A stretch of 32,000 nucleotides of DNA from Zestosphaera tikiterensis (GCA_003056265.1 NBVN01000002.1:612032-644031); one strand, 5' to 3'. Shown: positions 8,109 through 25,115, counted from the first letter of the stretch. The notes: generated from the letters alone by a model not told the origin. A program made the numbers and translations.

Positions 8109-8948
8109 CTACTTAACGTATACGTAGCTTACGTTTTTCTGAACGCATAAGTTAACGATCTCCGTCCTGTCTTCAGAACGCATCTTAGTTATTACGACTT
8201 TCTCCACCTTATCCGCGTTTCTTTCAAGTGCTTGAAGCGCTATATCCCTCAGCCTTTCCTTATGCTGCGTTAATTCGTTGATTGCGTACCTAGATATTAT
8301 ATGTCCGTAACACTCCCTTAACGTAAGCGCTCTCTCCGTGAATTGCTCAGCGTAGTGTGGGCCGCCGAAACCTACCGTAGGAACGCACTCAACAGGTGAG
8401 GCGTTAGTTAAAGCCGCGATTATGGCTTGCGCTAACGTCTCGTGAGCTTCGCTTAAACTCCATTCAAGCTCTGAAGAGCCTATCTCAACGAAAGTCAGCG
8501 GTTTTTTAACGTTTGTAGGTCCGTGATGCGTTACTTCATAAACCACTTTAAAGTCTGGTAAGGTGTTCACGGCTAACTTACTGATGTTCGTTAATATGCT
8601 GTAGGATATCCTAGGGTTTGAGTAGGCAAGCTCGTATGGGTTCCCACCAAATAACGCTTCGTTGGTTGGGTTCCCTGTATGATGCACTGTAAGTGATTTA
8701 ACACCTGAGCTTGCTGAATGCCTTGAAAGGATTATGAAGTACTCAGCCTCAGGCAGTACGTCATCGAGGAAGTTAAAGTATATTACGTCTTCGTTGAACT
8801 CAGCTAGTAAGGCGTCTATATCCTCAACATACCAAGCCCTTAACGCCTTACTTAAGCGGGCCTCCCTATACTTAAGGATTTTAAGAAGTGATTTAGCTAT
8901 TCCTGAACCAGCCGGGTCTATAGAGCTATACACCAGCGCCTTCATCAA
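8109..8948 (-). CDS. dtdA: Archaeal-type D-aminoacyl-tRNA deacylase (DTD2)
   Basis: 279-aa ORF. The N-terminus (MKALVYSSIDPAGSGIA) and the block LSRHSASSGVKSLTVHHTGNP match the archaeal DtdA pattern. Length is typical. Confidence 0.75.
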   Translation of the reverse strand: MMKALVYSSIDPAGSGIAKSLLKILKYREARLSKALRAWYVEDIDALLAEFNEDVIYFNFLDDVLPEAEYFIILSRHSASSGVKSLTVHHTGNPTNEALFGGNPYELAYSNPRISYSILTNISKLAVNTLPDFKVVYEVTHHGPTNVKKPLTFVEIGSSELEWSLSEAHETLAQAIIAALTNASPVECVPTVGFGGPHYAEQFTERALTLRECYGHIISRYAINELTQHKERLRDIALQALERNADKVEKVVITKMRSEDRTEIVNLCVQKNVSYVYVK

Positions 8949-10415: not shown

Positions 10416-12230
10416 TTAAGCTTCCTTAAGCCATGGATACATGTCAATCCACTTACTTATGAATGGCTCGTACGTCTTCATATACAGCGGGTGTGAAGTC
10501 ATCTTCTTAATAAGTTCTAAATCCCTCCTATACTTCATAGCGTCGCCCACGCTTCCCTCACCCTTCAGCTTAACCCACTCATCAAGCGTGAGCATGTACT
10601 TCTTCTGAACGTAGTCTCTATAGACGTCGCTTAACACGTTGAACGTGCAGAACGGCACTACCCTCCCGTCAGGCATTAGGTAATGTACGTTGCATCTCAT
10701 AACCCTCTCCACGTCGTAGTTGTAGAGATCCATGAAGTGCATCATGCCTAAGAACATAAACTTATAGTGCCACTCACCTAAAGATTCGTAGGATTGCTTA
10801 GTGAAGATCTCGAAAAGCAGTTTAGGCAGGATCTTCTTAACGTCTGAAGGCACTTCAGACCATTTAATGTATTTAGTTATCATCGAAAGCAGTATTTTAG
10901 ACCCTATGACGAACTTAGCTCCGCCACTCCTTAACTCCTTAGCTTTTTCGGAGAGGTAGTCCAGAAAGCCCTCCACATCTATCATCTTAGTTATGGGTAT
11001 GAACTCAACCGAGCTATCCACCTTCTTAACGTAGACGTAAGTCCCGACACCGCATTCCGGGTGGTTAGCCATCTCGAACTTAAACTTCCCAGATAGAGAC
11101 TCTATAAACTCGGAAACGGATGTTGAGGTAGGTACTGGGAACCAGTCATTTACCGTTATCTGGCCTGAGGTCTGCTCTTCAATCATCTTTATAGTGTCGT
11201 AAATCGTTACCCTCAGCTTCTCCCTCTCAGCCTTCTTAATCATCCCAGTAAGTGAGACTGGCTGGAAGTTAACCGACCTAACTATGTCCATGTTTAAAGC
11301 CGCGAATTTTATTATGTCGCCCAACTCATGCGTGTTAACTCCTTTAATCACTGTAGGAACTAAAACAACGCTTGTAACGCCTCCCTTCCTGAAGGTCTCG
11401 AAGATAAACGGTATCTCCCAATGGTTTTTAGGGTTGGCCTTAGGTGAGACTCCGTCGAAGCTCATGTATATCGTGTTAACTCCAGCTTCTCTAATGCTCT
11501 TAGCTAGTTTAACCGCTTCCTCCTCGCCTTTAGTTAGGTAGAGTCTTGCGAAGGCTATAGCGTGTGTGTTAAGTTGGATATGTCTAACGCCTAAACCCCT
11601 AAGCAGCTTAACTATGTCGACTAAGTCCTCCCTAAGCGTTGGTTCACCACCGGTTAACTGTATGGCCGGCGTAACGCCCTGCTTAAGGAGTTGCTTAACC
11701 ATAAACTCAATCTGCTCTATTGAAGGCTCGTATACGAAGCCGGACTTCTCAGCGTAGAAGAAGCAATACCAACAGCTTAAATCACATCTGTTGGTAAGCA
11801 CTAAATTCGCTAACGCAGTATGGTTTTTATGTAGGGGGCAGAGCCCGCAGCTGTATGGGCATGGGGCGGTTAACTCCGTATATACGTGTCTAGGCCCTCT
11901 ACCCTCAACAAACCACTTCTCAATCCTTTTAGCGAATTCTGAACTACCCTGATATATTTCTTCGATCTCGCCGTGTTCCGGACATACCTTCCTAATGTAG
12001 AGCTTCCCATCCCTCTCAACTATTACCGCCGGAAGTAACGCGTAGCAGTAAGGGCAGATGGATTGCGTGTACCTAACTAACTTCTCACCCTCCCTAACCT
12101 TAGGTAGTGGGCCGCCAACACGGACTTCCTTATCAGCTATCCTAACGACTTTAGACCTTACGTCAAACGATGAAGGACGTATTAATGAGGGCTTACCTAA
12201 CTCATCGCTTACTTCATTCAAGCACTTCAA
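10416..12230 (-). CDS. Multi-cluster radical SAM enzyme, probable tetraether lipid synthase (Tes / GDGT-MAS-like) family
   Basis: 604-aa ORF. It has an N-terminal rubredoxin/Zn-ribbon-like CPYC...CPEH, an auxiliary CPYSCGLCPLH, the radical-SAM motif CDLSCWYCF, and three further C-terminal Cys. The radical SAM call is firm. The Tes assignment rests on Cys architecture, size and the neighbouring GGR gene. Confidence 0.8.
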   Translation of the reverse strand: MKCLNEVSDELGKPSLIRPSSFDVRSKVVRIADKEVRVGGPLPKVREGEKLVRYTQSICPYCYALLPAVIVERDGKLYIRKVCPEHGEIEEIYQGSSEFAKRIEKWFVEGRGPRHVYTELTAPCPYSCGLCPLHKNHTALANLVLTNRCDLSCWYCFFYAEKSGFVYEPSIEQIEFMVKQLLKQGVTPAIQLTGGEPTLREDLVDIVKLLRGLGVRHIQLNTHAIAFARLYLTKGEEEAVKLAKSIREAGVNTIYMSFDGVSPKANPKNHWEIPFIFETFRKGGVTSVVLVPTVIKGVNTHELGDIIKFAALNMDIVRSVNFQPVSLTGMIKKAEREKLRVTIYDTIKMIEEQTSGQITVNDWFPVPTSTSVSEFIESLSGKFKFEMANHPECGVGTYVYVKKVDSSVEFIPITKMIDVEGFLDYLSEKAKELRSGGAKFVIGSKILLSMITKYIKWSEVPSDVKKILPKLLFEIFTKQSYESLGEWHYKFMFLGMMHFMDLYNYDVERVMRCNVHYLMPDGRVVPFCTFNVLSDVYRDYVQKKYMLTLDEWVKLKGEGSVGDAMKYRRDLELIKKMTSHPLYMKTYEPFISKWIDMYPWLKEA

Positions 12231-12297
12231 CCTCTGAAATACTTATACAGCGTTAAAATAAAAACTTTTGCTCAATCGATTAAGTGGGTGGTTTAAG

Positions 12298-13071
12298 GTG
12301 GTTAAGCTTTACGTGCATAGACTCTGCTTATCTAGCTATACACTCTATAAAGAACTTAAGGCTAGAGGCACCTTAGATAAGGTTAAGTTCGTCGACACCT
12401 CAAACAGCTTAAAAGCGGTTAAGAAAGGTGTTTTCAGCGTTCCAGCGTTGGAAACTCAAGGCATGTTAGTAGCTGTAGACCCGATAGAGGTGGAGTTAGT
12501 TGAAGCCGCCGCGTTAAACGAAGACTTAAGTAGGTTCGCCCCAAAAACAGTTGAGGAAGCGGTTGAAGCTTTCTTTAAAAGCCTCTACGCAAGCGGTTAC
12601 CTATCATGTGTTTCCTTAATCCACGGGCTGAAGCCAATCCTTAAAGACTTAAGCACGGTGAGACTCCTAGCTAAGTTAAGGTTAGGCACCACGTTAAAAA
12701 CCTCTGAAGTTATGGAAGGCATACTTAAAAAGATGGAGGCAAGCGAAGATGAAGTAAGGAGTAAGTTAGCGTATATATGCTTTAAAAACTACGTTAGAGA
12801 ACATATATGGTTAAACCCTAAAGCAAGCTATGAAGACATACGAAACACATTAAACGAAAGCAACGTAACATCATGGCTACTCGCTAAAACCTCAGTAGGA
12901 AGAACCTTAATACCGAACAACCTAAACACGGTTAAGAAAGCAGCCAACGAATTAATTAAACTAGGGAATAACAAACTCGAAACAACAACAGCAAAAACCA
13001 AAGAAGAAGTAGAAACCCTATCGAAAGACATAGAATTCCAGAAATACATAAAAACAAAAAGAAGCAGTTAA
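12298..13071 (+). CDS. Hypothetical protein with N-terminal thioredoxin-fold-like segment (CxxS) and K/N/T/E-rich tail
   Basis: The ORF track starts at TTG 12268. I prefer the in-frame GTG 12298 (MVKLYVHRLCLSSY...) because a TATA-like box (taaaataaaaa, ~12253-12263) sits immediately before and abutting the TTG and about 35 nt ahead of the GTG. KLYVHRLCLSSY...FSVPAL resembles a glutaredoxin/thioredoxin fold with CxxS and a cis-Pro motif. Confidence 0.5.
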   Translation: MVKLYVHRLCLSSYTLYKELKARGTLDKVKFVDTSNSLKAVKKGVFSVPALETQGMLVAVDPIEVELVEAAALNEDLSRFAPKTVEEAVEAFFKSLYASGYLSCVSLIHGLKPILKDLSTVRLLAKLRLGTTLKTSEVMEGILKKMEASEDEVRSKLAYICFKNYVREHIWLNPKASYEDIRNTLNESNVTSWLLAKTSVGRTLIPNNLNTVKKAANELIKLGNNKLETTTAKTKEEVETLSKDIEFQKYIKTKRSS

Positions 13072-13094
13072 ATAATTAAATCAATAATATATTG
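13071..13094 (+). promoter_or_regulatory. Candidate TATA-box promoter for the secreted-protein gene cluster
   Basis: AT-only stretch aataattaaatcaataatatattg, immediately after the upstream stop. It would give a leader of about 55 nt that carries a GAGGT Shine-Dalgarno motif at 13159-13163, 9 nt before ATG 13173. Confidence 0.3.
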
Positions 13095-13172
13095 AAAACA
13101 AACCAACGAAACCATGAGTCAAAAAGCTTAAAAACAAAAACAACACAGAAGTAAGGCAGAGGTAAAAACCAA

Positions 13173-13754
13173 ATGAACAAAAACCAGAAAAGAACGTTGT
13201 TGGCGCTTGCGGCCCTAGCTATAGCCGTAGCTGTGGTAAACGCCAGCGTCTTCGCATACTACCAGATAGACGTGACAATAACTGGTGTGCAACCACCGGT
13301 AGTCTTTGTTGCAGGTAACAACGCTAACAAGGCAGACCTAGGAGCGGGCAACAGCATTGCTGTAGCTCTAGGAGCGAACAGCACCTCAGCTGCAATAACG
13401 ATCCACCCAACCTATCAGCACACATACTACCACGACGTACTCAAAGTCAATAACATCGATAGAAATAAAGCCTATTACGTAGCGTTCAAAGTCACATCAG
13501 CTATATCCAGCTGGCCCTCTGATTCGGTTGCGAAGATGATTATATACAGTAGTGGCGGCTCGAAGGTTACGGATGTAGACCTCAAAGCTAATAGTGATAC
13601 GGGCTGGATAGGGCTTCTGGATGCTAACGACTATTACAGGATCGATTTCTACATATACTACCCGGAGGGTAACCAGCTACCGGGCGGAACAGTGCAAGTT
13701 CAGCTGATATATAGCCCGCAGAACCCATCGACAATACCGACATTACCATCGTAG
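13173..13754 (+). CDS. Secreted beta-rich protein with SPase-I-type signal peptide; candidate TasA/AbpA-like filament (major) subunit
   Basis: 193-aa ORF with a good SD (GAGGT). The signal peptide MNKNQKRTLLALAALAIAVAVVNA|SVFAYY obeys the -3/-1 rule (V-N-A). The mature N-terminus resembles SipW-cognate signal peptide/mature junctions (..AxFAY[FY]..). The protein is beta-strand-rich with N-x-S/T sequons (NAS, NST). A signal peptidase I gene lies two genes downstream. Leu codon use is atypical (TTA 1 of 13 by hand count). Confidence 0.75.
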   Translation: MNKNQKRTLLALAALAIAVAVVNASVFAYYQIDVTITGVQPPVVFVAGNNANKADLGAGNSIAVALGANSTSAAITIHPTYQHTYYHDVLKVNNIDRNKAYYVAFKVTSAISSWPSDSVAKMIIYSSGGSKVTDVDLKANSDTGWIGLLDANDYYRIDFYIYYPEGNQLPGGTVQVQLIYSPQNPSTIPTLPS

Positions 13755-13766
13755 CGGTGAGTAGAG

Positions 13767-14812
13767 ATGAAGTACCCTAAACTAAAACTAAGTTTTTTTA
13801 CATATTAGTTCCGTCACTCTTAGTCCTCACCATATCCTCTGTCTACGCCTCCGTATTCGTTTACTACCCCCTCTCAACAAATATTCAGGGGGTTAGCCCT
13901 CCGGTCGTCTTTCAGGCTGTTTCCGGCATACCTGCTACGATATCTCCTTGGGGTACATACGCAAGTGTATCTCTATCGCTACCCCTAATCGTTGTGAACG
14001 CCAACTTCTCCGGAACGCTAAGCCCGTGGACTACTATCTCGAGTATCAGTCAAAGTGCATGGAGTCCCGCATCTGGTGTTCAGGGAGCATCTGATGGATA
14101 TGTTGCGAGCTTCTCTGAAACTAATAGAGACGTTGATACTGGTTACGGTGAGATATACCAAGAGATATTTATACCGAGTGTAGCCGGCTCGAGTAGCTAT
14201 ACGGTAACTGTCTACATAAGATTCCAGATTAGTCGGTTTCAGGCTAGGGGAGGCGGTAGTATCTCTATAACGTACGGGCTCTTTAACCCTGCCACAAATT
14301 CATGGGTATGTGATCAAAGCAATACATATCAAGGAACAACAGGCTGGACTTCCTATTCTGTTAGTTGCTCCATAAGTGTGTCGGGTAGCTACAGGCTTCG
14401 CGCCTACATAACTGTAACCAACACGCGGACGTTCACCATTTATATAGATTACCTCTACATCTCGGTGTATAGCTCCAGCAGTGCTGTCCTCAACGTGTAC
14501 AACCGAGACTCTCAGCCCTACTATGCTAGACTGATGCTAAATTCTGTCACAGGGTTGAATCCTCAGAACCTGTTCTGCGAGATAGGCATAGGGGACTCGC
14601 AGCCCATACAGATAAGAAGCGGGCAGATAGTTGCGGGCGAAACGTCGGAGGTTGTCCTCTCTTCAGGTAGCTTCACACCGATAAATGTGAAATGCCTGAC
14701 AACGTCTAGAGGTAGCTACACGTTGACTCTAACTCTGAGGTATTGCACGGTACCCGGAGGTAACGGTGTATGTGTCTACTACCCCTTAACCATAGTTTTA
14801 AGTTCTGGGTAA
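13767..14812 (+). CDS. Secreted paralog of the 13173 gene carrying a lectin/CBM-like jelly-roll region, interrupted by a -1 frameshift at a T7 tract (candidate minor subunit or adhesin; possibly a pseudogene or sequencing error)
   Basis: ATG 13767 is preceded by a GGTGA SD (13756-13760) and encodes MKYPKLKLSFF, then hits TAG at 13806. The frame of the 13994..14812 ORF is open back to 13781. That frame encodes YILVPSLLVLTISSVYA|SVFVYYPLSTNIQGVSPPVVF, a signal peptide plus the same mature N-terminus as the upstream gene. The two frames join at T7 (13793-13799). The region 13781-13993 has no ATG, GTG or TTG in this frame. Confidence 0.65.
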
Positions 14813-14818
14813 TGTAGC

Positions 14819-15970
14819 ATGAAGTACCTCGACTATATAGCTCTTGGTGTTATTCTACTCCTGATCGTAGGTAGGTTGGTTTGGTTTCCCGTAGCTCTTT
14901 TCGTGGTTTCCGGGGATTCCATGCTTCCAACTCTTAAGACTGGGGATTTCGTTTTAGGTGTTGCTACGTATTTAAGTGGTTATGGAGTTGGTGATGTTGT
15001 TGTTTGGTATGCTACGGTAACGCATGGAACTATACATAGGGTTGTTAACGTTTCTGAAGGGTATGTAGTAACTAAAGGTGATAATAACCCGTTGCCAGAT
15101 CCTTCAATACCCGCTTCGTTCGTTAAGTATAAGGTCGTGCTCCACATACCTAGGGAGTTTTGGTTTCCCGCCGCCCTCACGTTAGCTGCTTTCTATATCT
15201 TCACGAAGCGTAGGGAGATTGCCTCAACGTTTAAGACCATCACACCGGGTGAGATGAGGGTGGCTTACGCAGTATTCATATTTTTCGTAGTTGTTGACGT
15301 AGCTACTGTGTTTTTAGTGGGTGTTCAGTACTTCAGCCCGGCAACGGTTTTAATTAAGCCTTCGGTTGAGTTGAGGAGTATGGAAGTCTCTAAAGATGGG
15401 GGTAGTATCTACTTAACTTTCACAGTTAAAAACGCTGAGCCTCTAAACGTAAGTTTATGTGAGGTTACCTTACTAAACGCTACCTTCCCATGTTTAACGC
15501 ATCGTTTAGTGGGTTCCGTAGCTGTTGTTGAAGTGCCTAGGGAGGCGTATAGCTACGCCTATAGAGCTTCAAACAACTACATAACTTACGTAAGCTTAAG
15601 GCTAAACATAACGTTCGATAAGGGGTGGGTTGAGGGGAGGTATCCATACACTATAAACTGGAGGGCGCTTCAAGTATCGGTGATTAACAACTCAGTAGTT
15701 ATTAACAACCCAAACTACATTCAATTCAACTTAACTGAAGTTAAAGTGATTTATATGGGGGTTAAGCAACCCTTCAACACACCTGAGGTTTTGAAGATCG
15801 AGTACTTAAGCGATTACGTCGTGGAGGCTGGGAAGTCCTTAACGATAGATGTGATGCCTGTAAACGGCAGTAGATATGCTTACGTAGAGTTTAAATACGA
15901 ATTTAAGTTCTGGCCTTACGGCGGGGGTGGGGTAGTTCTTGAGAGGAGGAGGGTTGACTTCAAAGGTTAA
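14819..15970 (+). CDS. Archaeal/ER-type (SipW-like, S26B) signal peptidase I fused to a ~270-aa membrane-anchored C-terminal extension
   Basis: The first ~110 aa contain an N-terminal TM segment, box B VSGDSMLPTL (Ser nucleophile), box D GTIHRVV (His, not Lys) and box E TKGDNNPLPD. These are followed by two TM segments and a ~200-aa beta-rich region with many N-x-S/T sequons (NVS, NAT, NIT, NNS, NLT, NGS). The gene starts 6 nt after the preceding stop. Confidence 0.8.
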   Translation: MKYLDYIALGVILLLIVGRLVWFPVALFVVSGDSMLPTLKTGDFVLGVATYLSGYGVGDVVVWYATVTHGTIHRVVNVSEGYVVTKGDNNPLPDPSIPASFVKYKVVLHIPREFWFPAALTLAAFYIFTKRREIASTFKTITPGEMRVAYAVFIFFVVVDVATVFLVGVQYFSPATVLIKPSVELRSMEVSKDGGSIYLTFTVKNAEPLNVSLCEVTLLNATFPCLTHRLVGSVAVVEVPREAYSYAYRASNNYITYVSLRLNITFDKGWVEGRYPYTINWRALQVSVINNSVVINNPNYIQFNLTEVKVIYMGVKQPFNTPEVLKIEYLSDYVVEAGKSLTIDVMPVNGSRYAYVEFKYEFKFWPYGGGGVVLERRRVDFKG

Positions 15971-15971
15971 G

Positions 15972-16547
15972 ATGCTTTACGTACTGGCCTGCGTTTCCGC
16001 TACGTTCTTAGGGTTGACGTTAATAACGTCTGTAGTGACGCCTATCTACCGTTTCCACGGCGTTGTGGAGGGTGAGGTCGCTCTCTCATGGTATCTACTG
16101 AGCTACTATGATGAGGTAGTGCGTGTTGCTTCGTTAGATGCTGTGAGGGTTTTAACCATTCCTTTATTTATATTATCCACGTTTTTAATCGCTTCTTCAG
16201 CTTATGCCTTACTAACGTATGTTTTTAAGAAGTTTAACTCCTTACTTTCGGCGGCGGAGTTGCTTTTAGGCGGTGGTTTAGCCTCGATAACCATGAGTAC
16301 GTTACTACTCTCAATAGTTAGGATTTTAACGACTGAAGTAAGTGGGTTAAGCGTTGATAACGTATTCTATACGTCGGCAGGCTTGGTAAACTTCGGTAGG
16401 ACATACTACTACGTAAACAGCCTAACTTCAACCCTCCTAAACCCCTTAACGGTTATGGCGTTAAACACGATTAACGCTTTACTTGCTGGCGCTACCTACG
16501 TATTGCTGACTTCCGAGGTAGGGACTCAAGAGGAAGGGAGTTCTTGA
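15972..16547 (+). CDS. Integral membrane protein (about 4 TM), unknown function
   Basis: The ORF track starts at TTG 15939. The in-frame ATG 15972 lies 1 nt after the SPase stop (TAA 15968-15970) and begins directly with a hydrophobic segment (MLYVLACVSATFLGLTLITSVV). Four hydrophobic stretches are present and the tail is acidic. Confidence 0.6.
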   Translation: MLYVLACVSATFLGLTLITSVVTPIYRFHGVVEGEVALSWYLLSYYDEVVRVASLDAVRVLTIPLFILSTFLIASSAYALLTYVFKKFNSLLSAAELLLGGGLASITMSTLLLSIVRILTTEVSGLSVDNVFYTSAGLVNFGRTYYYVNSLTSTLLNPLTVMALNTINALLAGATYVLLTSEVGTQEEGSS

Positions 16548-16607
16548 GGTTTAAGGTTGGCTATATATTCTTTATTAATCCCTCCTTAAACATATTATCT
16601 TAGTGGG

Positions 16608-17549
16608 GTGGGGTTTCTGACTTCCTTGTCTAGCGTTATATTTGATAGGCTTTCCAACCTACTTATTGAGAAGGGTTTAGAGATTAAGTTGATTGTGTCC
16701 TGCCTTATAGCTAGAGGTCACGTACTTCTTGAGGGTGTTCCAGGCGTTGCTAAGACTTCAATGGCTAAATCCGTTGCTAAGCTCTTCAGCCTTAACTTCA
16801 GAAGGGTTCAAATGACTCCGGACCTACTCCCTTTAGATATCGTGGGTTACTACGTCTACGACCAAAGAACTGGTGAGTTTAGGTTTAAGCAAGGACCTAT
16901 ATTCACTAACATACTCTTAGTTGATGAGATAAATAGGGCTTCCCCAAGAACTCAAAGTGCTTTACTGGAGGCTATGCAGGAAAGGCAAGTAACTATAGAG
17001 GGGAGTACGTTTAAGCTTGAGGAGCCTTTCTTAGTGATAGCCACTCAAAACCCTATAGAGATGGAGGGTGTTTTCCCGCTGCCTGAAGCTCAGTTAGATA
17101 GGTTCTTAGCTAAGGTTGAGACAGGATATTTAAGCAGTAACGGATTTAAAGAAATGCTTAAGAGGATTGACGAGATTGAAAGAGGTGTTGAGGAACTTAA
17201 GCCCGTGATGTCTCGCGAGGACCTCCTAACGTTAATGAATAGAGTTAAAGAAGTCAGGGTTGATGACTCGATATACGATTACGTAGTAAACATAGTTGAG
17301 GAAACTAGGAAACACCCAGCGGTTAAGTTAGGTGGGTCGCCTAGGGCTGGGATAGCGATGCTCAGACTAGCTAAGGCTTGGGCCCTTATAGAAGGGAGGG
17401 ATTACGTAATACCTGACGACGTCAAGGCTGTAGCGACTGCGGCTTTAACGCATAGGTTGATACTTAAGCCGGAGTATGAGGTTGAAGGCGTTACATCAAC
17501 TCAAGTCATTAACGACGTGTTAAGTAAGGTTCCGGTGCCTAAACCTTGA
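16608..17549 (+). CDS. MoxR-family AAA+ ATPase
   Basis: 313-aa ORF with Walker A (LLEGVPGVAKTS), Walker B (ILLVDEINRASPRTQSALLEAMQERQVT), the ATQNP block, LPEAQLDRF, and the C-terminal GGSPRAG lid typical of MoxR. A TATA-like ctatatattctttattaat lies 30-45 nt upstream of the GTG start. Confidence 0.9.
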   Translation: MGFLTSLSSVIFDRLSNLLIEKGLEIKLIVSCLIARGHVLLEGVPGVAKTSMAKSVAKLFSLNFRRVQMTPDLLPLDIVGYYVYDQRTGEFRFKQGPIFTNILLVDEINRASPRTQSALLEAMQERQVTIEGSTFKLEEPFLVIATQNPIEMEGVFPLPEAQLDRFLAKVETGYLSSNGFKEMLKRIDEIERGVEELKPVMSREDLLTLMNRVKEVRVDDSIYDYVVNIVEETRKHPAVKLGGSPRAGIAMLRLAKAWALIEGRDYVIPDDVKAVATAALTHRLILKPEYEVEGVTSTQVINDVLSKVPVPKP

Positions 17550-18694
17550 AAACACGTTTGAAGATAGTGGCGTTGTCTTTAGCTACGCTACTCCTACTTA
17601 ACCTACTCAACTTAGCAGTTACTCAAGCTCAGGAAGTCCCTAGACACACCCCTGGGTTCCCAGAAAGCAGTTTAGAGGGTTTAACGCCTTTCTTAAGTGA
17701 ATGGCAGAAAATCCTCAACATGTTGTCTAACGCTACGTTAAGTGATGTTTTAAGTAACGCATCAGCTAAGGAAGAGCTTCAAAACTACGTTAAAGAGCTT
17801 GAAGCTGAGAATAAGTTAACTTTAGAGGAGAGGGAAGCTTTAAAAGCTACTTTAAGCGGGGACGTAAGCGTTGATGAGTTGATGAAGAACATACGTAATG
17901 AGGACTTACGTAATGTATTGAATGAGCTTCTTAACATGAGTAAGGAAGGCCTACTTAAAAGCGAGGATTTAATGAAGTATTTAAGTATGGTTGCTAAGAT
18001 GCGTGAAGAGGGCTATATCTCAATAAGCGATTACATATCTGCTTTAAACATTATGAAGACTTTAACGAGGGATGAAGGAGTGCTCACAGCCATAGATAGT
18101 GAGTTACTTAAGTCTATGATTAACTTACTAGCTAGCGCTGGGAGCACGCCTGAATTTACAGCACTGCCTTCAATACCTTCGGGGAGCCCGTCCTTAAGCC
18201 TTAAAACCCCTGAGGTCGGTAGCACATCAAGATACTTAGAGGGGTTTAAAATACCCTCCATATCCGTGGCTTTCCCCTCACTGTCTCCGCTAGCTCTTCA
18301 AGACGTTCTACAATACGTGGTCTTAGCTATTGTTTTGATTGTCGTTTTTTCCTTAGGTTTTCTCTTTATTAGAAGGTTTAGAGAACCCATAGCTCGGGCG
18401 TTCTCTAAAGCCGTTTTAAGTAGGGGTGAGGTAGGTTTAGAAGGGCTTCCCGAACCCATCAAGTATTATTGGAGTTCCGTTAAGGCTGTAGAGACATACA
18501 CGAAGATTAGGAAGTTAGATAACGTAACTCATAGGGAGTACTTAAGTAGGGTATCGCAGTCTTTAGGTGATTTAGTTGAGGAGTTTAAGAAAGTAACTCA
18601 AGCCTACGAGCTCGTTAGGTTTGGCGGTTCAGTAAGTGATGAAGTGGTTAAGGAAGCTAAAGAGAGTTATGTGATGTTGGTGAGGAGGTTGTGA
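17546..18694 (+). CDS. Bitopic membrane protein: signal peptide, extracytoplasmic helical domain, S/P-rich linker, TM, cytoplasmic DUF4129-like domain
   Basis: The TTG start overlaps the MoxR stop (TTGA). The N-terminus is MKTRLKIVALSLATLLLLNLLNLAVTQAQE. The TM segment is VLQYVVLAIVLIVVFSLGFLFI. The C-terminal THREYLSRV...AYELVRFGG fits the DUF4129 pattern (T.rEy.......l..lt..Ye..rYg). Confidence 0.7.
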   Translation: MKTRLKIVALSLATLLLLNLLNLAVTQAQEVPRHTPGFPESSLEGLTPFLSEWQKILNMLSNATLSDVLSNASAKEELQNYVKELEAENKLTLEEREALKATLSGDVSVDELMKNIRNEDLRNVLNELLNMSKEGLLKSEDLMKYLSMVAKMREEGYISISDYISALNIMKTLTRDEGVLTAIDSELLKSMINLLASAGSTPEFTALPSIPSGSPSLSLKTPEVGSTSRYLEGFKIPSISVAFPSLSPLALQDVLQYVVLAIVLIVVFSLGFLFIRRFREPIARAFSKAVLSRGEVGLEGLPEPIKYYWSSVKAVETYTKIRKLDNVTHREYLSRVSQSLGDLVEEFKKVTQAYELVRFGGSVSDEVVKEAKESYVMLVRRL

Positions 18695-19824
18695 AAGTCG
18701 GTGAGTTAATTCTTAAGGTAGTTCCTAGGTTGGTTGCTTTAGCTGTTCTCTGGGATTCCATAACAATCTTAACTCAAGAGCTGCCTAAGGTTACCGCCCC
18801 TCAAGCCTTCATCTTAAGCCTTATCTCAACCCCTTCAAACATGCTTTTAACGGCGTCTTCAGTAGTTGCTGTGTTAACGGTTGCTACGTCCTCACCAACG
18901 CTTTACGTGTTTTCCGTGATACTCCTAGCAGTCGGTAGAGGTGTTTTAGGCTACGCCATATCCCCTTCAGTAATCGCCGGCTTGGCTCTAGTCCTTATAC
19001 TGGATACGTTGGCCTTAACTTACAGAAGCGGTCAAAGAACGTCGGTAAGGATGGGTGGGAAAGCTTTTACATACGGTGTTTTAAGCGTTGCGTTTGTTTT
19101 CTTGGGGGTTATTACGGCCTCCCTATTCTTCAGTCAATACTTAACGACTGTTGTCACAACCATATTGAGCGTTTCGAAGTATAGCGTCGTTAAGTACGGT
19201 GTCCTAGCTTCCTTAATCGATAATCCATTGATTAAATTATGCGTTGTTGTTTTGATTGTGTTGTTCCTATATGAGGTGATAGTCAACGTATTCGACACGG
19301 CCTCCATCTACCTAAGGCCTTCGAGGAAAGTCTGTTTATCAACCCTTAAGAACCGCTCTGATATAGACGTAGTTATTGAGAGGCCCCTACAAACTCTATT
19401 CACGTTAATATTAGCTAGTTTAGTAGCTCCCGTTATTTACGTGTTTTTAATCGATATAATCACCCCTAAGTTAGTCGCGGTGCTCACACCGTTAAGTGGG
19501 TTTTTAAAGAATCCCTACGTAGCTGCTGCGTTAAGCTTAGCTACGTATGCATTAGCCTTCGCTTTAACGAAGCCTTTAATCTCCTCGTTAACTGTGGAGG
19601 AGGTTAAGTTAAGGAACTTAACCTTGCCAGCCACTTTAAGCTTGTTCATTTATTTAAGCGCTGTTTTAATCTCCTACGATAGGGGCTTAACCTTAAGTCA
19701 AAGCTTCTTAAGTCCGGACTTCACGACATTAAGCAACACTCTCTATAGAGGTTATTTAAACTTCTACACGTCTTTATTTTATATTCTTGAAATAATACCT
19801 AAGCTTGTGGGGGCTGCGCCATGA
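18691..19824 (+). CDS. Polytopic integral membrane protein (about 9-10 TM), unknown function
   Basis: The GTG start overlaps the upstream stop (GTGA) and a GGAGG motif lies just upstream. The 377-aa protein is almost entirely hydrophobic segments. Confidence 0.7.
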   Translation: MKVGELILKVVPRLVALAVLWDSITILTQELPKVTAPQAFILSLISTPSNMLLTASSVVAVLTVATSSPTLYVFSVILLAVGRGVLGYAISPSVIAGLALVLILDTLALTYRSGQRTSVRMGGKAFTYGVLSVAFVFLGVITASLFFSQYLTTVVTTILSVSKYSVVKYGVLASLIDNPLIKLCVVVLIVLFLYEVIVNVFDTASIYLRPSRKVCLSTLKNRSDIDVVIERPLQTLFTLILASLVAPVIYVFLIDIITPKLVAVLTPLSGFLKNPYVAAALSLATYALAFALTKPLISSLTVEEVKLRNLTLPATLSLFIYLSAVLISYDRGLTLSQSFLSPDFTTLSNTLYRGYLNFYTSLFYILEIIPKLVGAAP

Positions 19825-20078
19825 GTAAATACATACCTAAACTTAAAATTAATAAAGCGTATCTATACCTCGCCATCGGTTTAGCCTTACTGGTGTTATC
19901 TATGATGTTCTTCTTCATGTCGGTTGGGTATATGGAGAGAGCCTTGATAAGTACGTCACTATTGACGGCGTTTATAGGCTTTTCACTCCTTTCAAGCTCG
20001 CTTTACGTGCTGAGGCTTTCCGCTTACGTATATGGTGTTGAGGCTGAAGGACGTGAAGAAACTAAAGCTGGTAAGTAG
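19821..20078 (+). CDS. Small 2-TM membrane protein
   Basis: The ATG overlaps the upstream stop (ATGA). The 85-aa protein has two hydrophobic helices and a charged tail. Confidence 0.55.
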   Translation: MSKYIPKLKINKAYLYLAIGLALLVLSMMFFFMSVGYMERALISTSLLTAFIGFSLLSSSLYVLRLSAYVYGVEAEGREETKAGK

Positions 20079-21492
20079 TTGGGTCGTTATAGGGTTGGTG
20101 GTTTTAGCTTTAATAGCCCTACTCGAGAAAGGGCCTCCGATAGCTTACGTTTTTTCAGGGGCTTCCCCCGCCAGCCCCATGTCATTCGGTACTTACGAAT
20201 TCTACCTACTCGTTAGGGAGAGACATCAAGCAACGGCTGTTTTCAGGCTTGACGACTTAAAACTGCCCAGCAACTCAAGATGTGTTTACGTGTTGATATC
20301 TCCGGATATCCCATACACGTTGGAGGAGGGCAGGCACGTAGCTAAAGCGTTAAGTCAATGCGTGAGTTACGCAGCTTTAATAGCTGACGAGTGGGGAACT
20401 TCAAACAATGTTTTAATAGCGTTAAACACTTCGGTGAGGGTGGTTGGTGATTTAGTTTTAGATGCGTTGCGAACTCCATACCCGCAAGCGCAGATGCGAG
20501 TTATAGGTAGGTATGAGAACACCTACGAGATCACTTTAGACATAGCTTCGGAAGTTTCGGGAGGTACTCCTTCAGGGTTTGTAGTGAATGGTTATGTAGT
20601 GACGGGAGGTAATGCCCCACCGATTAAGCGGGACGTGATTTACGTAGCTGCTTACGAATCCGTTAAGGACAACCCCGTATACGTGATTGGCGACGGATCC
20701 ATATTCTTAAATCAAGTCCTTACGTCTAAGGAGGGTGGGCGGTATAGGGAGTTTGCTCTAAGCGTTGTTGAAGGGCTTTGCGGCGGTCAACCCAACTGTT
20801 ACGTAGTTTTCGACGGTTCACACCATAGTGGCGTTAAAGCAAGTGACTTGCTTGCGAGACCTCAGTTAATAAGCAACTACGTTAAGAACCCTCAAGACCT
20901 CTTCTACGTTATAACGCCTATGATCTCGTTAATATTACACCCTACTTTCTGGCTCCCACCCCTAGCTAGTTGGTTGAATAGGTTTACGGGCTTCATATTC
21001 GGTAACGAGCTTTTCTACTCTTCAGCGTTGTTGTTTGCTGTAGTCCTCACATACTACTTAGTTAAGGGAAGATTCCCATCAACTTCAGATTTTAGACTTC
21101 CTGAGCAAAGTGAGGTTGAGTTATTCGCTACTTCAGACATTAGAAACGCTGTACTCGCCGGTAGGGTTAAGTTAGGTAAGGAAGACTTCATAAAGCTTTA
21201 CGATATGGTTAACTCCGTGTTGGTTGGTGTTGCTGGTGTGGAGTTAAGCGATGAGAAAGCGCTTCAACTCTTAAGTAAGGCTGTAGGCGCTGAAGCTTCG
21301 TTAAAGTATTTTAAAGAGATGAATAAACTCTACGTTAAAGTTAAGAAACGTAAGTTACTCCCTATAGTCCTGTCTTGGGATAGGAGGGTTAGGAAGTTAA
21401 TAACGCAGAGTGAGGAGGTTCTTAAGGCTTTAGGTACGTCGTTACAGTCCGAGAGAGGAGTTGAGTATGTGTTCTTGAGGTTCGCAAGATGA
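20032..21492 (+). CDS. Membrane protein with extracytoplasmic DUF4350-like domain (N-terminal TM, ~280-aa ectodomain, second TM, cytoplasmic helical tail)
   Basis: 486-aa ORF overlapping the previous gene by up to 47 nt (alternative GTG start at 20053). The topology and the GDGSIFLNQ block resemble DUF4350/GldG-like domains, which typically occur in MoxR-DUF58 operons. The family call is by eye only. Confidence 0.6.
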   Translation: MVLRLKDVKKLKLVSSWVVIGLVVLALIALLEKGPPIAYVFSGASPASPMSFGTYEFYLLVRERHQATAVFRLDDLKLPSNSRCVYVLISPDIPYTLEEGRHVAKALSQCVSYAALIADEWGTSNNVLIALNTSVRVVGDLVLDALRTPYPQAQMRVIGRYENTYEITLDIASEVSGGTPSGFVVNGYVVTGGNAPPIKRDVIYVAAYESVKDNPVYVIGDGSIFLNQVLTSKEGGRYREFALSVVEGLCGGQPNCYVVFDGSHHSGVKASDLLARPQLISNYVKNPQDLFYVITPMISLILHPTFWLPPLASWLNRFTGFIFGNELFYSSALLFAVVLTYYLVKGRFPSTSDFRLPEQSEVELFATSDIRNAVLAGRVKLGKEDFIKLYDMVNSVLVGVAGVELSDEKALQLLSKAVGAEASLKYFKEMNKLYVKVKKRKLLPIVLSWDRRVRKLITQSEEVLKALGTSLQSERGVEYVFLRFAR

Positions 21493-22823
21493 GTTCTGAA
21501 GCCTTAACTCAAGTTTCAGGAACTCAAAGATTGACCGCCGTCTTACTAATAACAGCTGCTTTACTTGTGTTCTCGGTGTTCGTCAATATAGACTTCCTAA
21601 TGCCGGCTATGGCTTTAGTTGCTTTAATAGCTTCAACACGTGGTTACGCAGTCATATCGTATTTAGCGTTAAGCAAGTGTGAGATTAAAACCAACGCCTC
21701 AGTTACTGTGGGTGGGAAGCCCTTAACGTATTCAATAGAGATATTCAATAAGGGGTTAATACCTATAGCCTTGGTTGAGATCACCTTAAATTACTCGCAA
21801 AACCTAAGGCTTGTTAAAGGCTCTAAAGCAGCTCTCTTAATCATACCGCCTAAAAGCTCCGTAACGTATGAAGTGGTTTTCAACGGACGTGTTGGGAAGC
21901 ATCGCGTAGGCCCTCTTAAAGCTGTTGTTAGAGACCCTCTAGGGTTATTCAGGAGTTCCGAACTGGAGTTGGTTAAGGCTGAGGAAGTCGCTATACAGCC
22001 ACCCGCGCGTGAAGTCATGATTAGGAAGGTTTGGACCCACACGAGGTCTGCCGGCGTGGTTAGGTCTAGAGAGCCTGGGTTAGGTGTTGAGCTCTACGGC
22101 GTGCGTGAGTTTAGGCCGGGCGACGATTTAAGGAGGGTTGTTTGGAGGACTTTAGCGTCAAGCAATAGGTTATCCGTTAAGGAGATGGAGAGGGAAACGT
22201 ATCAAAGCATATTCTTCGTTGTTGAGGCAAGCCCTCAAATGTTTTACGGTCCTTACGGGGGGACTCCATACGAACACGCTAGTGAGGTGATAGCGTCTAT
22301 ATCAGCGTACTTAGCTAGGAGAGGCGATCTAATGTCTTTAGTTGTGGCAACTCAAGACGGGGTCTTAACATCGGGTAAGCCGTCTAGAGGGCGTAACGCA
22401 TACGTTAAAATCTCTAAAACGTTATCGATGGTTCCATACATCGCTGACTCCGTAGACAGAAATCTACTTTTAAAGAAAGCCCTTAAAGAAATTTTAAATA
22501 GCTTACCTAGGGAGAGGAACCTAATATTCGTTTTCACGACGGCAGGGGATGAAACCTACCTTAAAGGTTTGCTAGAGTTCATCAATAAGTTAAGGAGTCT
22601 TAATAACGACGTATACGTTGCGATACCTTTAACTATTGCTTACGAGGTTAGGGGGCTTCCGCCATGGGCTCAAGCAATCTATAGAGTTAAACTCTACGAT
22701 AAAGTTAAGGATGAGTTGGAATTCGCTCGAAAGTTAGTTAAGTATAGGGCTAGAGTAATAGCTATAGGCCCTCAATACATGCCTGAAACCATAGTTAGGA
22801 TCGTGGAAGCTAGACGTAGTTAA
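21489..22823 (+). CDS. DUF58 family protein (VWA-like partner of MoxR) with two N-terminal TM helices
   Basis: The ATG overlaps the upstream stop (ATGA). The hallmark DUF58 motif GVREFRPGDDLRRVVWRTLASSNRLSVKEME is present (compare [YF]rpGD..r.i.Wk.sar...l.vke). It is followed by a VWA-like alpha/beta region. Confidence 0.85.
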   Translation: MSSEALTQVSGTQRLTAVLLITAALLVFSVFVNIDFLMPAMALVALIASTRGYAVISYLALSKCEIKTNASVTVGGKPLTYSIEIFNKGLIPIALVEITLNYSQNLRLVKGSKAALLIIPPKSSVTYEVVFNGRVGKHRVGPLKAVVRDPLGLFRSSELELVKAEEVAIQPPAREVMIRKVWTHTRSAGVVRSREPGLGVELYGVREFRPGDDLRRVVWRTLASSNRLSVKEMERETYQSIFFVVEASPQMFYGPYGGTPYEHASEVIASISAYLARRGDLMSLVVATQDGVLTSGKPSRGRNAYVKISKTLSMVPYIADSVDRNLLLKKALKEILNSLPRERNLIFVFTTAGDETYLKGLLEFINKLRSLNNDVYVAIPLTIAYEVRGLPPWAQAIYRVKLYDKVKDELEFARKLVKYRARVIAIGPQYMPETIVRIVEARRS

Positions 22824-22849
22824 CTACAACGTAACTTACGTTTACGTTG
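22816..22849 (+). terminator. Palindrome plus hairpin at the end of the MoxR-DUF58 operon (possible terminator or RNA-stability element)
   Basis: A perfect 12-nt palindrome GTAGTTAACTAC (22816-22827) spans the stop codon. A stem-loop follows: caacgtaa-cttacgt-ttacgttg (22827-22849, 8-bp stem). It is not followed by a strong T-tract, so function is uncertain. Confidence 0.25.
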
Positions 22850-22898
22850 GACTTTAATCAAGTAGCGTCAGACATAATTTGGTGGTGCTGGAGCAACC

Positions 22899-23810
22899 AT
22901 GCGTAAGAGGGTTGAAACGTATCTTACGGTTGTTTTCCTAATGCTCCTAACCTCCTTAGTCGGTGTTTACTTCATTAACTTAATTTACGGAGGCTTCGCT
23001 AAGGTTAAGGTCTTCGTAAGTACTACAACTTCATTGTATGAGACGGGGCTTTTAGAGCGTTTAGCATCTGAATTCAGTAAGTATTATCCAGATGTTCGGC
23101 TTGCGTTTATAGTCGTAGGCAGCGGCGAGGCTTTGGAGAGGGCGTCTAGAGGTGATGTGTGTTTAGTGCTTTCCCACGCACCCTCCTTAGAAGTTAAGTA
23201 TGTTGGTGAGGGGTCTATATATAAACACGTGATATTCGCGTATAACTATTTCGTGTTGGTAGGTCCTGAAGAGGATCCCGCGGGAGTTTCCAAAGCTTTA
23301 AACGTTGTTGAAGCTTTCGCGAAGATCTTCGAAGCTGGTGAGGAAGGGTTAACGACTTTCGTAAGTAGGGGGGATAAATCAGGTACTAACGTTAAGGAGC
23401 TTCAGCTATGGAGTCTAGCAGGCTTAAACCCCCTGAATAGGAGTTGGTATAAAAACTGCGGTTGCGGGATGTCGCAAGCCCTCATAATATCCAATCAGTT
23501 AGGAAGTTACGTACTTAGCGACATAAGCACGTTCTTAAAAATGAAACGTAGCGGCCTCATACCCCATCTGAAGGTATTTTTCAGCAACTCAACGGAGTTG
23601 ATCAACGTTTACAGCGCGTATATATCATCTAAATGCGGTGGTGAAGAACTTAAACATGCTGAAGAATTTCTGAACTTCCTAACTAGCGATATAGGTCAGG
23701 AATTAATAGCTAACTACGGCGTTGAGGAATACGGTCAGCAACTTTTTCATTCGGTTAGAGGTGGTGAGGAAAGATTATTAGCTGTTTGGGAACAACTCTC
23801 TAGAGGTTGA
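22899..23810 (+). CDS. tupA: Tungstate/molybdate ABC transporter substrate-binding protein, TupA-type, membrane-anchored
   Basis: 303-aa ORF with an N-terminal anchor helix. It carries the TupA-like motifs VSTTTSLYETGLL (compare TTTS..dsGLL) and VSRGDKSGTNVKE (compare RGD.SGT). Cognate permease and ATPase genes follow. Confidence 0.7.
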   Translation: MRKRVETYLTVVFLMLLTSLVGVYFINLIYGGFAKVKVFVSTTTSLYETGLLERLASEFSKYYPDVRLAFIVVGSGEALERASRGDVCLVLSHAPSLEVKYVGEGSIYKHVIFAYNYFVLVGPEEDPAGVSKALNVVEAFAKIFEAGEEGLTTFVSRGDKSGTNVKELQLWSLAGLNPLNRSWYKNCGCGMSQALIISNQLGSYVLSDISTFLKMKRSGLIPHLKVFFSNSTELINVYSAYISSKCGGEELKHAEEFLNFLTSDIGQELIANYGVEEYGQQLFHSVRGGEERLLAVWEQLSRG

Positions 23811-23817
23811 GTCTTCC

Positions 23818-24453
23818 ATGTTTGATGAAGTGGTGGAGATCTCCGTTAGGTCGATTTTAATTTCAGGCAGTGCTACCTTACTAGCCTCGCTTTTCGGGCT
23901 TCCGTTAGCTTACTTAGCCGTTGTTAAAGCTAAGGTTAGGTCTTTCGTGCCCATCGCTGAATCCCTTTCCGGTATGCCGACTGTTTTGATAGGTCTCCTA
24001 CTCTACATGTTGTTAAGTAGGGATGGGCCGTTAGGTTTTTTAAACATGCTTTACACACCGCAGGCTATAATCGTCGGTCAAGCAGTGTTGGTAGTTCCGT
24101 TAATAATAGCGACGAGTTTCGGAGCTTTAAGAACTTCTTACGAAAGCGTTGGTGAGTTAGCCATTACTTTAGGGGCGACGGATCTTCAAGTAATGCTAAC
24201 TGTTTTGAAGGAGTCTTTAAATAGGGTTTTGGCTTCGTTGATGATAGCTTTTTCAAGGGCTTTAGGTGAGCTTGGAATAGCTTTAATGGTTGGAGGTAAT
24301 ATACGTGGAGAAACTAGAGTGTTTTCAACCTCGATAGCTCTTTCAGTAGCTGTGGGGGAATTCAACGAAGCCGTTAAGCTTGGGTTGATACTCTTAGCTG
24401 TAGAGACTTCTTTAATAGTTTGTGTGAGAATGCTTCAAGGTTTGGAAAGATGA
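23818..24453 (+). CDS. tupB: Tungstate ABC transporter permease, TupB-type
   Basis: 211-aa ORF with 5 TM segments and the permease signature FSRALGELGIALMVGGNIRGETRVFSTSIAL (the GGNI...TR block is typical of TupB). Confidence 0.7.
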   Translation: MFDEVVEISVRSILISGSATLLASLFGLPLAYLAVVKAKVRSFVPIAESLSGMPTVLIGLLLYMLLSRDGPLGFLNMLYTPQAIIVGQAVLVVPLIIATSFGALRTSYESVGELAITLGATDLQVMLTVLKESLNRVLASLMIAFSRALGELGIALMVGGNIRGETRVFSTSIALSVAVGEFNEAVKLGLILLAVETSLIVCVRMLQGLER

Positions 24454-25115
24454 TAAAACTCGTTAACGTGTGGTTTAAATACGTCGGCGGTAGGGAATGG
24501 GTTTTAAAGGACGTTAACTTAGAGTTCCGTAGAGGTGAGGTAGTTGTTTTAAGGGGTCCCAACGCCTCCGGTAAAACTACTTTAATGAAGGTTGCATCCC
24601 TAATATACAAGCCGAGTAAAGGTTCTGTAGTTGTTAACGATGACATGGATGTTTGGAGTAGAGGCGGTGATTACCTAGTAAAGTATAGGAGGATGGTTAC
24701 GTACGTTTCTGAAAAGCCCGTCATGTTTAAAGGGACTGTATACGATAACATAGCGTATGGACTTACGCTAAGGAACTACAGCTTAAGCGAAGTCGAGAGG
24801 AGAGTTTACGAGGTTTCCCGTAAGTTAGGTATAGAGCATATGCTCGATAAAGACGTTAAGGTTTTATCGGCTGGTGAGAAGCAGGTAGTTTCGTTAGCTA
24901 GGGCGTTAGTCCTCACGCCAGCGATTATGTTCCTTGACGAGCCATTAACTAACGTAGATGAAGACAGGAGGAAAACCGTCATTAACGCGCTGAAGGAGTT
25001 TAAATCCTTAGGTTCTGGTTTGGTGATAGCTACGCATCTCTATGAGGGGTTGGACGAGATAAACCCAGATAAGGTGGTTATCTTGAAAAACGGTGTGGTA
25101 GTTAAGATTACTTAA
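24450..25115 (+). CDS. tupC: ABC transporter ATP-binding protein, TupC-type
   Basis: The ORF track starts at 24420. I prefer the in-frame ATG 24450, which overlaps the tupB stop (ATGA) and gives MIKLVNVWFKY. It has Walker A (GPNASGKTT), the ABC signature (LSAGEKQ) and Walker B (IMFLDEP). Confidence 0.8.
   Translation: MIKLVNVWFKYVGGREWVLKDVNLEFRRGEVVVLRGPNASGKTTLMKVASLIYKPSKGSVVVNDDMDVWSRGGDYLVKYRRMVTYVSEKPVMFKGTVYDNIAYGLTLRNYSLSEVERRVYEVSRKLGIEHMLDKDVKVLSAGEKQVVSLARALVLTPAIMFLDEPLTNVDEDRRKTVINALKEFKSLGSGLVIATHLYEGLDEINPDKVVILKNGVVVKIT

Follow-up and report, generated by a model that had tools for sequence, protein, structure and literature searches.

The DNA analyzed here comprises 32,000 nucleotides (nt) of Zestosphaera tikiterensis (GCA_003056265.1, NBVN01000002.1:612032-644031; hereafter the window). 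Within it, eleven open reading frames (ORFs) follow one another on the + strand from 13173 to 22823. An earlier note on this DNA had described them as one block encoding a candidate uncharacterised cell-surface assembly system. An ORF check bears out the same-strand run, its gene order, and its tiny gaps and overlaps: junctions inside the block have 2-6 nt of spacing or 4-47 nt of overlap, with the sole exception of a 60-nt gap at 16548-16607. We propose, at a probability of about 0.78, that the block consists of two autonomous neighboring operons: module 1 (13173-16547), a filament locus of the thread/bundling-pilus (TasA) superfamily, and module 2 (16608-22823), encoding a MoxR-vWA membrane complex. 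Module 1 holds the genes for a major subunit (A), a minor paralog (B), a signal peptidase fusion, and a transmembrane (TM) protein (TM4). Its features, with the gap that follows it, are:

13173..13754, + strand: A, predicted major subunit of a thread-like donor-strand filament of the TasA superfamily, with a Sec signal peptide and an aromatic N-terminal donor strand (profile and fold matches)
13757..14812, + strand: B, minor paralog and candidate cap, tip or initiator subunit; frame open over 13781-14812, 36% identical to A N-terminally
13767..13808, + strand: short leader ORF, ATG-MKYPKLKLSFFTY-TAG, one base off the B frame (direct sequence reading)
14819..15970, + strand: fusion containing an archaeal/endoplasmic reticulum (ER)-type (SipW/Sec11-like) signal peptidase I (SPase I), from TIGR02228, catalytic residues, an AlphaFold (AF2) model and Foldseek
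15939..16547, + strand: TM4, membrane protein with about four TM segments and constant partner of the fusion; 32-nt overlap with the peptidase gene
16548..16607, no strand: intergenic gap between the modules, A/T-rich, with TATA-like strings ctatatattctttattaat and a T-rich stretch (sequence read)

The product of A is 100% identical to PUA33678.1 (A0A2R7Y817) of Z. tikiterensis, and the peptidase, TM4, MoxR and DUF58 products are likewise exact matches in the Z. tikiterensis assembly. Cleavage of A is predicted at VNA|SVFAYY, which reads AVVNA|SVFAYYQIDVTITG and leads directly into an aromatic N-terminal donor strand. The position follows from the -3/-1 rule and from alignment to LVA|DV of Saci_0406, the thread subunit of Sulfolobus acidocaldarius. 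Across 22 aligned members of the A family, A24, F27 and Y29 never vary, and Y30 hardly does. Alone, A matches the Saci_0406 structure (PDB 7pnb) with an E value of 0.002; a profile of the 22 members matches 7pnb_A end to end (E 9.5e-5, residues 3-187 versus 3-199).

The AF2 model of A has a predicted local distance difference test score (pLDDT) of 90.2. Its first-ranked Foldseek match is again 7pnb_A (E 7.8e-7, template-modelling scores 0.65/0.68), followed by the Pyrobaculum bundling pilin AbpA (7ueg_A, 0.55/0.59); the Pyrodictium cannula protein CanA (9h8b) is matched as well. The three best matches, all with E < 1e-3, are without exception archaeal donor-strand filament subunits. The 7pnb, 7ueg and CanA fibers form by donor-strand complementation and are now grouped in the literature as the TasA superfamily (bioRxiv 10.64898/2026.01.04.697558). 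The relationship between A and TasA is visible by fold alone (7ueg, 9h8b).

The third gene of module 1 encodes a signal peptidase with an unusual build. It combines an N-terminal TM segment, a catalytic domain (~25-110), a helical membrane hairpin (~112-166) with a basic loop in the model, and two extracellular beta-sandwich domains (~180-383). Pfam Peptidase_S26 falls below threshold on this protein (20.2 versus 22.9 bits), whereas NCBIfam TIGR02228 (sigpep_I_arch) scores above its cut-off (54.6 versus 51.85 bits). In an alignment of 20 full-length homologs, S34 (of the SM motif), H73, N90 and D94 are invariant; within the GDNN box, D88 is kept in at least 90% and N89 is nearly invariant. We take these conserved residues to be the ER/archaeal Ser-His-Asp arrangement of Sec11/SipW enzymes. 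We regard the signal peptidase identity as secure despite the sub-threshold Peptidase_S26 match, because TIGR02228 passes its cut-off and the catalytic residues are conserved.

An AF2 model of the fusion (pLDDT 86) is consistent with this assignment. Its N-terminal domain superposes on SpsB and on Streptococcus pyogenes SipA in Foldseek, with root-mean-square deviations of 2.1-2.7 Å, and its beta-sandwich C-terminus matches generic tandem FN3/Ig-like proteins. The ectodomain also gives weak matches to the chaperones FimC and CupB2 (E 2e-4 to 2e-3, template-modelling scores 0.14-0.29). Since generic tandem FN3 receptors match equally well, homology to these chaperones is not demonstrated. Neither DUF5305 nor any other Pfam family matched the C-terminal ectodomain at E values up to 10.

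TM4 belongs to no Pfam or NCBIfam family that we could find, and it keeps close company with the peptidase. Among the loci fetched for comparison (labeled L001 and so on), a TM4 ortholog directly follows the peptidase in L001-L009, L011, L170 and L172, and also in L167, a locus whose sequence is cut short on the peptidase side. The records deposited for Z. tikiterensis include a second copy, or strain variant, of the module, represented by PUA31280.1 on a 6460-bp contig from the same metagenome-assembled genome, with a peptidase 94% identical to that of the window (P0002). A further variant occurs in a JGI metagenome (L167 1-662), where TM4 is 92% identical and the downstream neighbors differ. 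The second copy could reflect strain heterogeneity or a true duplication.

We find that module 1 recurs widely. A 5.8-billion-protein index contains 31 full-length fusion homologs. Scanning a single genome for each species yielded 18 loci with full or near-full-length fusion matches, all from Desulfurococcales-like hot-spring archaea. When window proteins were searched by tblastn, the order A, B-like gene, fusion, TM4 recurred in more than 20 loci (L001-L022 and L170-L173). Because this order recurs so often, we consider module 1 a real, conserved four-gene unit as judged from synteny. The earlier note's pairing of a dedicated signal peptidase with the filament-type proteins A and B thus holds, given the fold matches of A and the shared gene order. 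In one of these loci (L170, 13954-14481), an exosortase/archaeosortase-like gene (PF09721) lies 3 kb downstream. As a candidate isopeptide-forming enzyme of the module it was rejected, since it occurs in L170 alone and in neither the window nor any other fetched locus.

Gene B resembles A over its first ~67 residues only (36% identity, E 2e-8). The shared region covers the signal peptide, the junction around the predicted cleavage site, A|SVF(A/V)YY, and the first strand. In other loci, B orthologs are likewise placed between A and the peptidase. The earlier note called B a secreted paralog; what it missed is that no canonical start codon precedes the signal peptide. The B-frame GTG at 13757, the ortholog of the GTG at which B starts in L002, runs into an in-frame TAA at 13778-13780. 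The next in-frame start is a GTG at 13994, past the signal peptide and donor strand, with no ATG, GTG or TTG before it. B appears not to have been annotated by NCBI, as the proteins of A and the peptidase have consecutive accessions.

The leader ORF offers a possible way into the B frame. Translated from its ATG, it gives MKYPKLKLSFF across seven T residues (T7, 13793-13799; U_UUU_UUU in this frame) and stops two codons on. A -1 ribosomal shift at the T7 run, or one extra U/T, would join the leader to B as MKYPKLKLSFF-YILVPSLLVLTISSVYA|SVFVYY. The predicted N-terminus of the -1-shift product, MKYPKLKLSFFYILVPSLLVLTISSVYA|SVFVYY, has the form of a classic signal peptide. The same TAA, ATG and T7 run are present in L168 (1988-2040) and L169, metagenome contigs from other samples in which A is 82% identical. 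The disrupted start is thus conserved across three independent assemblies.

Past the shared stop, B evolves as a coding sequence. Over the 114 available codons, the synonymous rate dS is 0.22 and the ratio of non-synonymous to synonymous rates (dN/dS) is 0.26, with 17 synonymous and 14 non-synonymous changes (binomial test against neutrality, P = 6e-4). This ratio is lower than that of A (0.59). We conclude that B is still selected as a protein. Comparable arrangements exist elsewhere: in L005 (~8845-8900, T7), L014 (~8600-8650, A6) and L021 (~1465-1500, T8), an upstream ATG is offset by one base from the B frame across a homopolymer, and one extra base or a -1 frameshift would repair the frame. 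In L021, B also has an in-frame TTG. Twelve other B orthologs have ordinary in-frame starts, while in L170 the signal peptide of B is lost and in L172 B carries indels. In L170 (8480-8600), A itself has an in-frame TAG before its last strand, the B signal peptide is deleted, and the mature N-terminus of B overlaps the end of A.

Production of B could involve ribosomal or transcriptional slippage, phase variation in the DNA, or read-through of the stop codon. Classical structured -1 frameshifting is unsupported, as we find no stable RNA structure downstream of the T7 run in the window (minimum free energy -1.8 kcal/mol, z = +0.65) and none in L168. Nor does the leader show extra nucleotide conservation: its 29/30 identity to L168 is not significant against a background identity estimated at ~90%.

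Several observations count against a filament locus of this kind. A is only ~20% identical to Saci_0406. In the 22 aligned family members, the first residue past the predicted cleavage site is Ser, Gly or Ala, and never Asp; in all described thread homologs, a mature N-terminal Asp24 is conserved and forms an isopeptide bond to Asn57 (PMC9715654). Since A lacks this Asp, we assign it to a thread-like subfamily and not to the orthodox thread subunits. In the Asn57 region, the profile alignment sets N56/N57 of Saci_0406 opposite A58/G59 of A, with N60, common in the A family and not invariant, one column off. Neither A nor B matches Pfam PF12389 (TasA/camelysin), even at E values up to 5. Profiles of the fusion, TM4 and A gave nothing significant against the four genes flanking Saci_0406 (BLASTP, hmmsearch, hhalign). 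Finally, with no in-frame start codon for B here, its production is putative.

These points leave room for a reading in which module 1 builds no filament at all: A and B, though sharing the jelly-roll fold, would act as monomers, as adhesins that are secreted or associated with the S-layer, and B would be a decaying pseudogene. The low identity and missing Asp of A would fit it, as would the absent start of B and the damage to B in L005, L014, L170 and L172. We consider it quite improbable. The three best structural matches of A all polymerize by donor strands, the A family shows almost no variation in the aromatic strand that immediately follows the cleavage site, and the purifying selection on B past its stop codon runs counter to decay.

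A filament locus of the thread/bundling-pilus superfamily is thus the reading we prefer for module 1, and it can be set beside known systems. The S. acidocaldarius thread (Saci_0406 with Saci_0405; 7pnb; PMC9715654, PMC11607397) is the best profile and structural match to A. In both Saci_0406 and A, an SPase I signal peptide is followed at once by an aromatic donor strand, and in both loci a smaller or variant paralog lies directly downstream on the same strand, its annotated ORF lacking a signal peptide. They differ in sequence, as noted, and in the conserved Asp24 of the former, replaced by Ser, Gly, Ala or Phe in the A family. Threads polymerize by donor-strand complementation following SPase I cleavage (PMC9715654). 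In the thread papers, what Saci_0404, 0407 and 0408 do is described as elusive, and how threads assemble as unknown (PMC9715654, PMC11607397). In the Sulfolobus thread cluster, BLASTP, hmmsearch and hhalign detect no homolog of the fusion or TM4.

The same papers report that Saci_0405 lacks a Sec signal. In the S. acidocaldarius locus L165 (8625-8780), a 131-amino-acid ORF downstream of Saci_0406 is probably Saci_0405. In frame upstream of it lie a signal peptide and a DYVLFY donor strand, cut off by a single TGA. In strain SUSAZ (L166), the codon matching this TGA is TCA and the frame is continuous.

TasA, AbpA, AbpX and Tafi loci often come with a dedicated SPase I gene (bioRxiv 10.64898/2026.01.04.697558). 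Like module 1, the Bacillus subtilis tapA-sipW-tasA operon and the archaeal AbpA, AbpX and Tafi loci unite a fiber subunit, a minor or accessory subunit, and a dedicated ER/SipW-type peptidase; of these, AbpA bundling pili (7ueg) are the second-best structural match to A. The AbpX-associated peptidase is reported to have ten TM helices and a separate DUF5305 accessory protein (bioRxiv 10.64898/2026.01.04.697558), whereas the peptidase of module 1 carries two beta-sandwich ectodomains in the same chain and has a 4-TM partner. The locus is not the published Z. tikiterensis abpX locus, whose accessions (A0A2R7Y7S4, A0A2R7Y7T0, A0A2R7Y9R0) differ from the A0A2R7Y817 found here. Chaperone-usher pili (Fim, Pap, Caf1) also grow by donor strands, and the weak FimC/CupB2 matches of the fusion ectodomain recall them; unlike those systems, the one described here has no outer membrane, and the window contains no usher-like gene.

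Downstream of the gap, module 2 begins with a MoxR gene, and its genes are joined by 4-nt overlaps:

16608..17549, + strand: MoxR-type AAA+ ATPase, cytoplasmic (Pfam AAA_3 E 8.4e-64, AAA_lid_2 E 4.3e-26; no hydrophobic segment)
17546..18694, + strand: bitopic membrane protein with C-terminal DUF4129 (Pfam E 2e-6, 28.2 versus a 24.8-bit cut-off; hydrophobic ~3-28 and ~246-280)
18691..19824, + strand: polytopic membrane protein without known family (~7-10 hydrophobic segments; ortholog in the same position in L085)
19821..20078, + strand: 85-amino-acid miniprotein, putative gene (two hydrophobic segments; overlaps of 4 nt and 47 nt with its neighbors)
20032..21492, + strand: DUF4350-like (arCOG01314-type) protein (N-terminal signal/anchor, large ectodomain, hydrophobic ~321-345, C-terminal tail)
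21489..22823, + strand: DUF58 (vWA-like) protein (N-terminal hydrophobic hairpin; Pfam DUF58 E 1.6e-12)

A crude hydropathy scan found at least one hydrophobic segment in every product of the block except MoxR, in agreement with the earlier note's view of MoxR as the sole soluble product. The domain labels given in that note fared unevenly. MoxR, DUF4129 and DUF58 stand above their Pfam cut-offs, while Peptidase_S26 and DUF4350 fall below theirs, the peptidase being rescued by TIGR02228. For DUF4350 the match is sub-threshold (19.2 versus 30.4 bits, E 1.5e-3). A full-length homolog of this protein (25% identity, E 4e-24) adjoins MoxR and DUF58 in L087, and the predicted topology of the window's protein agrees with the family description in PMC5898192. 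DUF4129 orthologs directly follow MoxR in L085 and L086, and MoxR is paired with DUF58 in most of 80 related MoxR loci.

Operons combining arCOG01314 (DUF4350), COG0714 MoxR ATPases and vWA proteins with assorted membrane and immunoglobulin (Ig)-like secreted proteins were described by Makarova, Galperin, and Koonin in 2015 and proposed to encode a novel secretion or membrane-remodeling complex (PMC5898192). By gene content, module 2 matches a version of this complex. Both have, in one operon, MoxR, a vWA/DUF58 protein, and small and polytopic membrane proteins, and the DUF4350-like protein of the window is a candidate counterpart of the signal-anchored DUF4350-type ectodomain protein; the window's version differs by an added DUF4129 bitopic protein. 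As far as their sequence reaches, L085 (to the polytopic protein) and L086 (to DUF4129) share the order seen in the window, MoxR, DUF4129, polytopic protein, miniprotein, DUF4350, DUF58. In view of this earlier description and model, and of the structures already available for thread/TasA-superfamily filaments, calling the block uncharacterised was too strong.

The earlier note had further suggested that the MoxR/DUF58/DUF4129/DUF4350 module matures or remodels the filament, and had itself set this idea against the synteny of the two modules in other genomes. We ran that comparison on 26 fusion-bearing loci, 17 of them distinct with at least 2 kb of downstream sequence and many with 10 kb on both sides, searching up to 10 kb by tblastn at 1e-4 and by phmmer with filters off. 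Homologs of MoxR, DUF58, DUF4129, the DUF4350-like protein or the polytopic protein occurred in 0 of these 17 thread loci. The genes that follow TM4 there include thiamine genes, orotidine monophosphate decarboxylase, regulators and glycosyltransferases. In L167, where the last 33 peptidase residues are 97% identical to those of the window, TM4 is followed by five small ORFs and then by a type IV pilus cluster on the opposite strand.

The reverse comparison gave the same picture. A metagenome scan with MoxR returned 80 loci, the four nearest being L085 (71% identity; MoxR-DUF4129-polytopic), L086 (68%; MoxR-DUF4129, its contig ending sooner), L136 (68%; MoxR-DUF58) and L087 (56%; DUF4350-MoxR-DUF58). 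No thread-module genes (A, peptidase, TM4) were found in the 6-8 kb upstream of any of the four by tblastn or profile search. With module 2 in 0/17 thread loci and thread genes in 0/4 nearest MoxR loci, the modules appear, from their gene neighborhoods, to be independently conserved and adjacent in the Z. tikiterensis lineage only. Such a lack of shared synteny is what the earlier note had said would refute its proposed link. In Haloferax L027 and L029, DUF58 and a SipW-like signal peptidase are encoded ~9 kb apart, in matching orientation in one genome and in opposed orientation in the other, a proximity that is probably coincidental.

On the side of a single integrated eleven-gene system, in which the MoxR complex would mature, insert or remodel the A/B filament, are the adjacency of the modules on one strand, 60 nt apart, and the fact that nearly all products are membrane-bound or secreted. 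Moreover, arCOG01314/MoxR neighborhoods, proposed as a secretion system, sometimes hold secreted Ig-like proteins, so that some looser tie to surface proteins would not be far-fetched (PMC5898192). It also counts against two separate operons that most of the synteny sample comes from metagenome fragments, several of them with less than 3 kb of flank, and that the sample compares local neighborhoods. Nonetheless, the absence of each module from the loci of the other and the different downstream neighbors of the close relative L167 make an integrated system highly improbable. Published donor-strand filaments of the TasA superfamily, furthermore, assemble without ATP or a chaperone. By synteny, the block is a mere juxtaposition.

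The shared strand does not rescue the idea of one system. The + strand run extends past the block, from 12268 to 25115, taking in an upstream 267-amino-acid gene and a downstream, unrelated three-gene ATP-binding cassette (ABC) transporter, and a common strand therefore does not delimit a system. The 267-amino-acid gene (12268-13071, + strand), directly upstream of A, has no Pfam family; its position is kept in L168, with dN/dS 0.34. The three downstream genes (22899-25115, + strand) begin 75 nt past DUF58. The first is a PBP_like_2 solute-binding protein (Pfam; the only one of the three scanned), and the second and third, read from sequence, are a putative permease and a putative ABC ATPase. 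Divergent from the block, on the - strand at 10416-12230, lies a gene for a radical SAM protein with an HMPTM-type N-terminal zinc ribbon (Pfam PF04055, PF23545).

The 60-nt A/T-rich gap that parts the modules is likely a terminator/promoter boundary. The TATA-like box noted there earlier is present, as the ctatatattctttattaat strings, at a plausible distance from the MoxR GTG. Transcriptional read-through across 16548-16607 is possible, and would suit a reading in which the modules are mechanistically independent and co-expressed in Z. tikiterensis, a lineage-specific regulatory coupling of two envelope systems. The gap is short, the orientation is the same, and no clear terminator was identified in it. 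We think such coupling unlikely, however, given the TATA-like strings and given that the adjacency is not conserved, as selection for co-expression would predict it to be.

We therefore return to two autonomous operons. The product of module 1 would be a thin, adhesive filament outside the cell. Sec would export A and B, and the membrane-anchored SipW/Sec11-type peptidase would cut both at the A|SVF(A/V)YY junction, freeing the aromatic N-terminal beta-strand. The freed strand would enter the open beta-sheet groove of the next subunit, and by this donor-strand complementation A would polymerize without ATP. B, presumably scarce and having only the signal peptide and donor strand in common with A, may cap, tip or nucleate the fiber. 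The two beta-sandwich ectodomains of the peptidase and TM4 probably serve to retain or position subunits at the membrane. In module 2, the widespread MoxR-vWA (DUF58) remodeling pair would be joined to the DUF4129, DUF4350-like and polytopic subunits as part of a membrane complex; from the cytoplasm, the MoxR ATPase would act through the membrane-tethered DUF58 protein on an envelope complex.

A bolder version, which we offer tentatively and consider rather doubtful, is that the fused peptidase and TM4 form a membrane-bound "cleave-and-hold" assembly platform for thread-type filaments, with B made only through programmed -1 frameshifting or transcriptional slippage. If so, the Ig-like ectodomains and TM4 would hold the fresh donor strand or groove and pass the subunit to the growing fiber. 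Slippage at the homopolymer, which sits at the n/h junction of the B signal peptide, would then fix a low ratio of cap or tip to shaft subunits, or allow phase variation. The same slippage logic would explain the apparent lack of a Sec signal in the S. acidocaldarius Saci_0405 ORF.

Our results bear on both halves of the locus. The idea that MoxR services the filament fails the cross-genome comparison, and this locus gives no ground to pursue it. The principle of a dedicated peptidase is already known, and the ectodomain fusion with TM4, on a thread-like subunit, is a variant of it; we found no description in the literature of a peptidase fused to two beta-sandwich ectodomains with a 4-TM partner and a thread-like subunit. 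The parts most worth attention are this fusion and the start-less minor-subunit gene B. The in-frame TGA that splits the Saci_0405 frame in one S. acidocaldarius genome provides a testable explanation for the missing-Sec-signal puzzle of the thread papers. The start-less yet selected B may be a case of archaeal recoding or phase variation controlling fiber capping. The fused peptidase and its constant partner TM4 are concrete candidates for the archaeal thread assembly machinery, which published work calls unknown.

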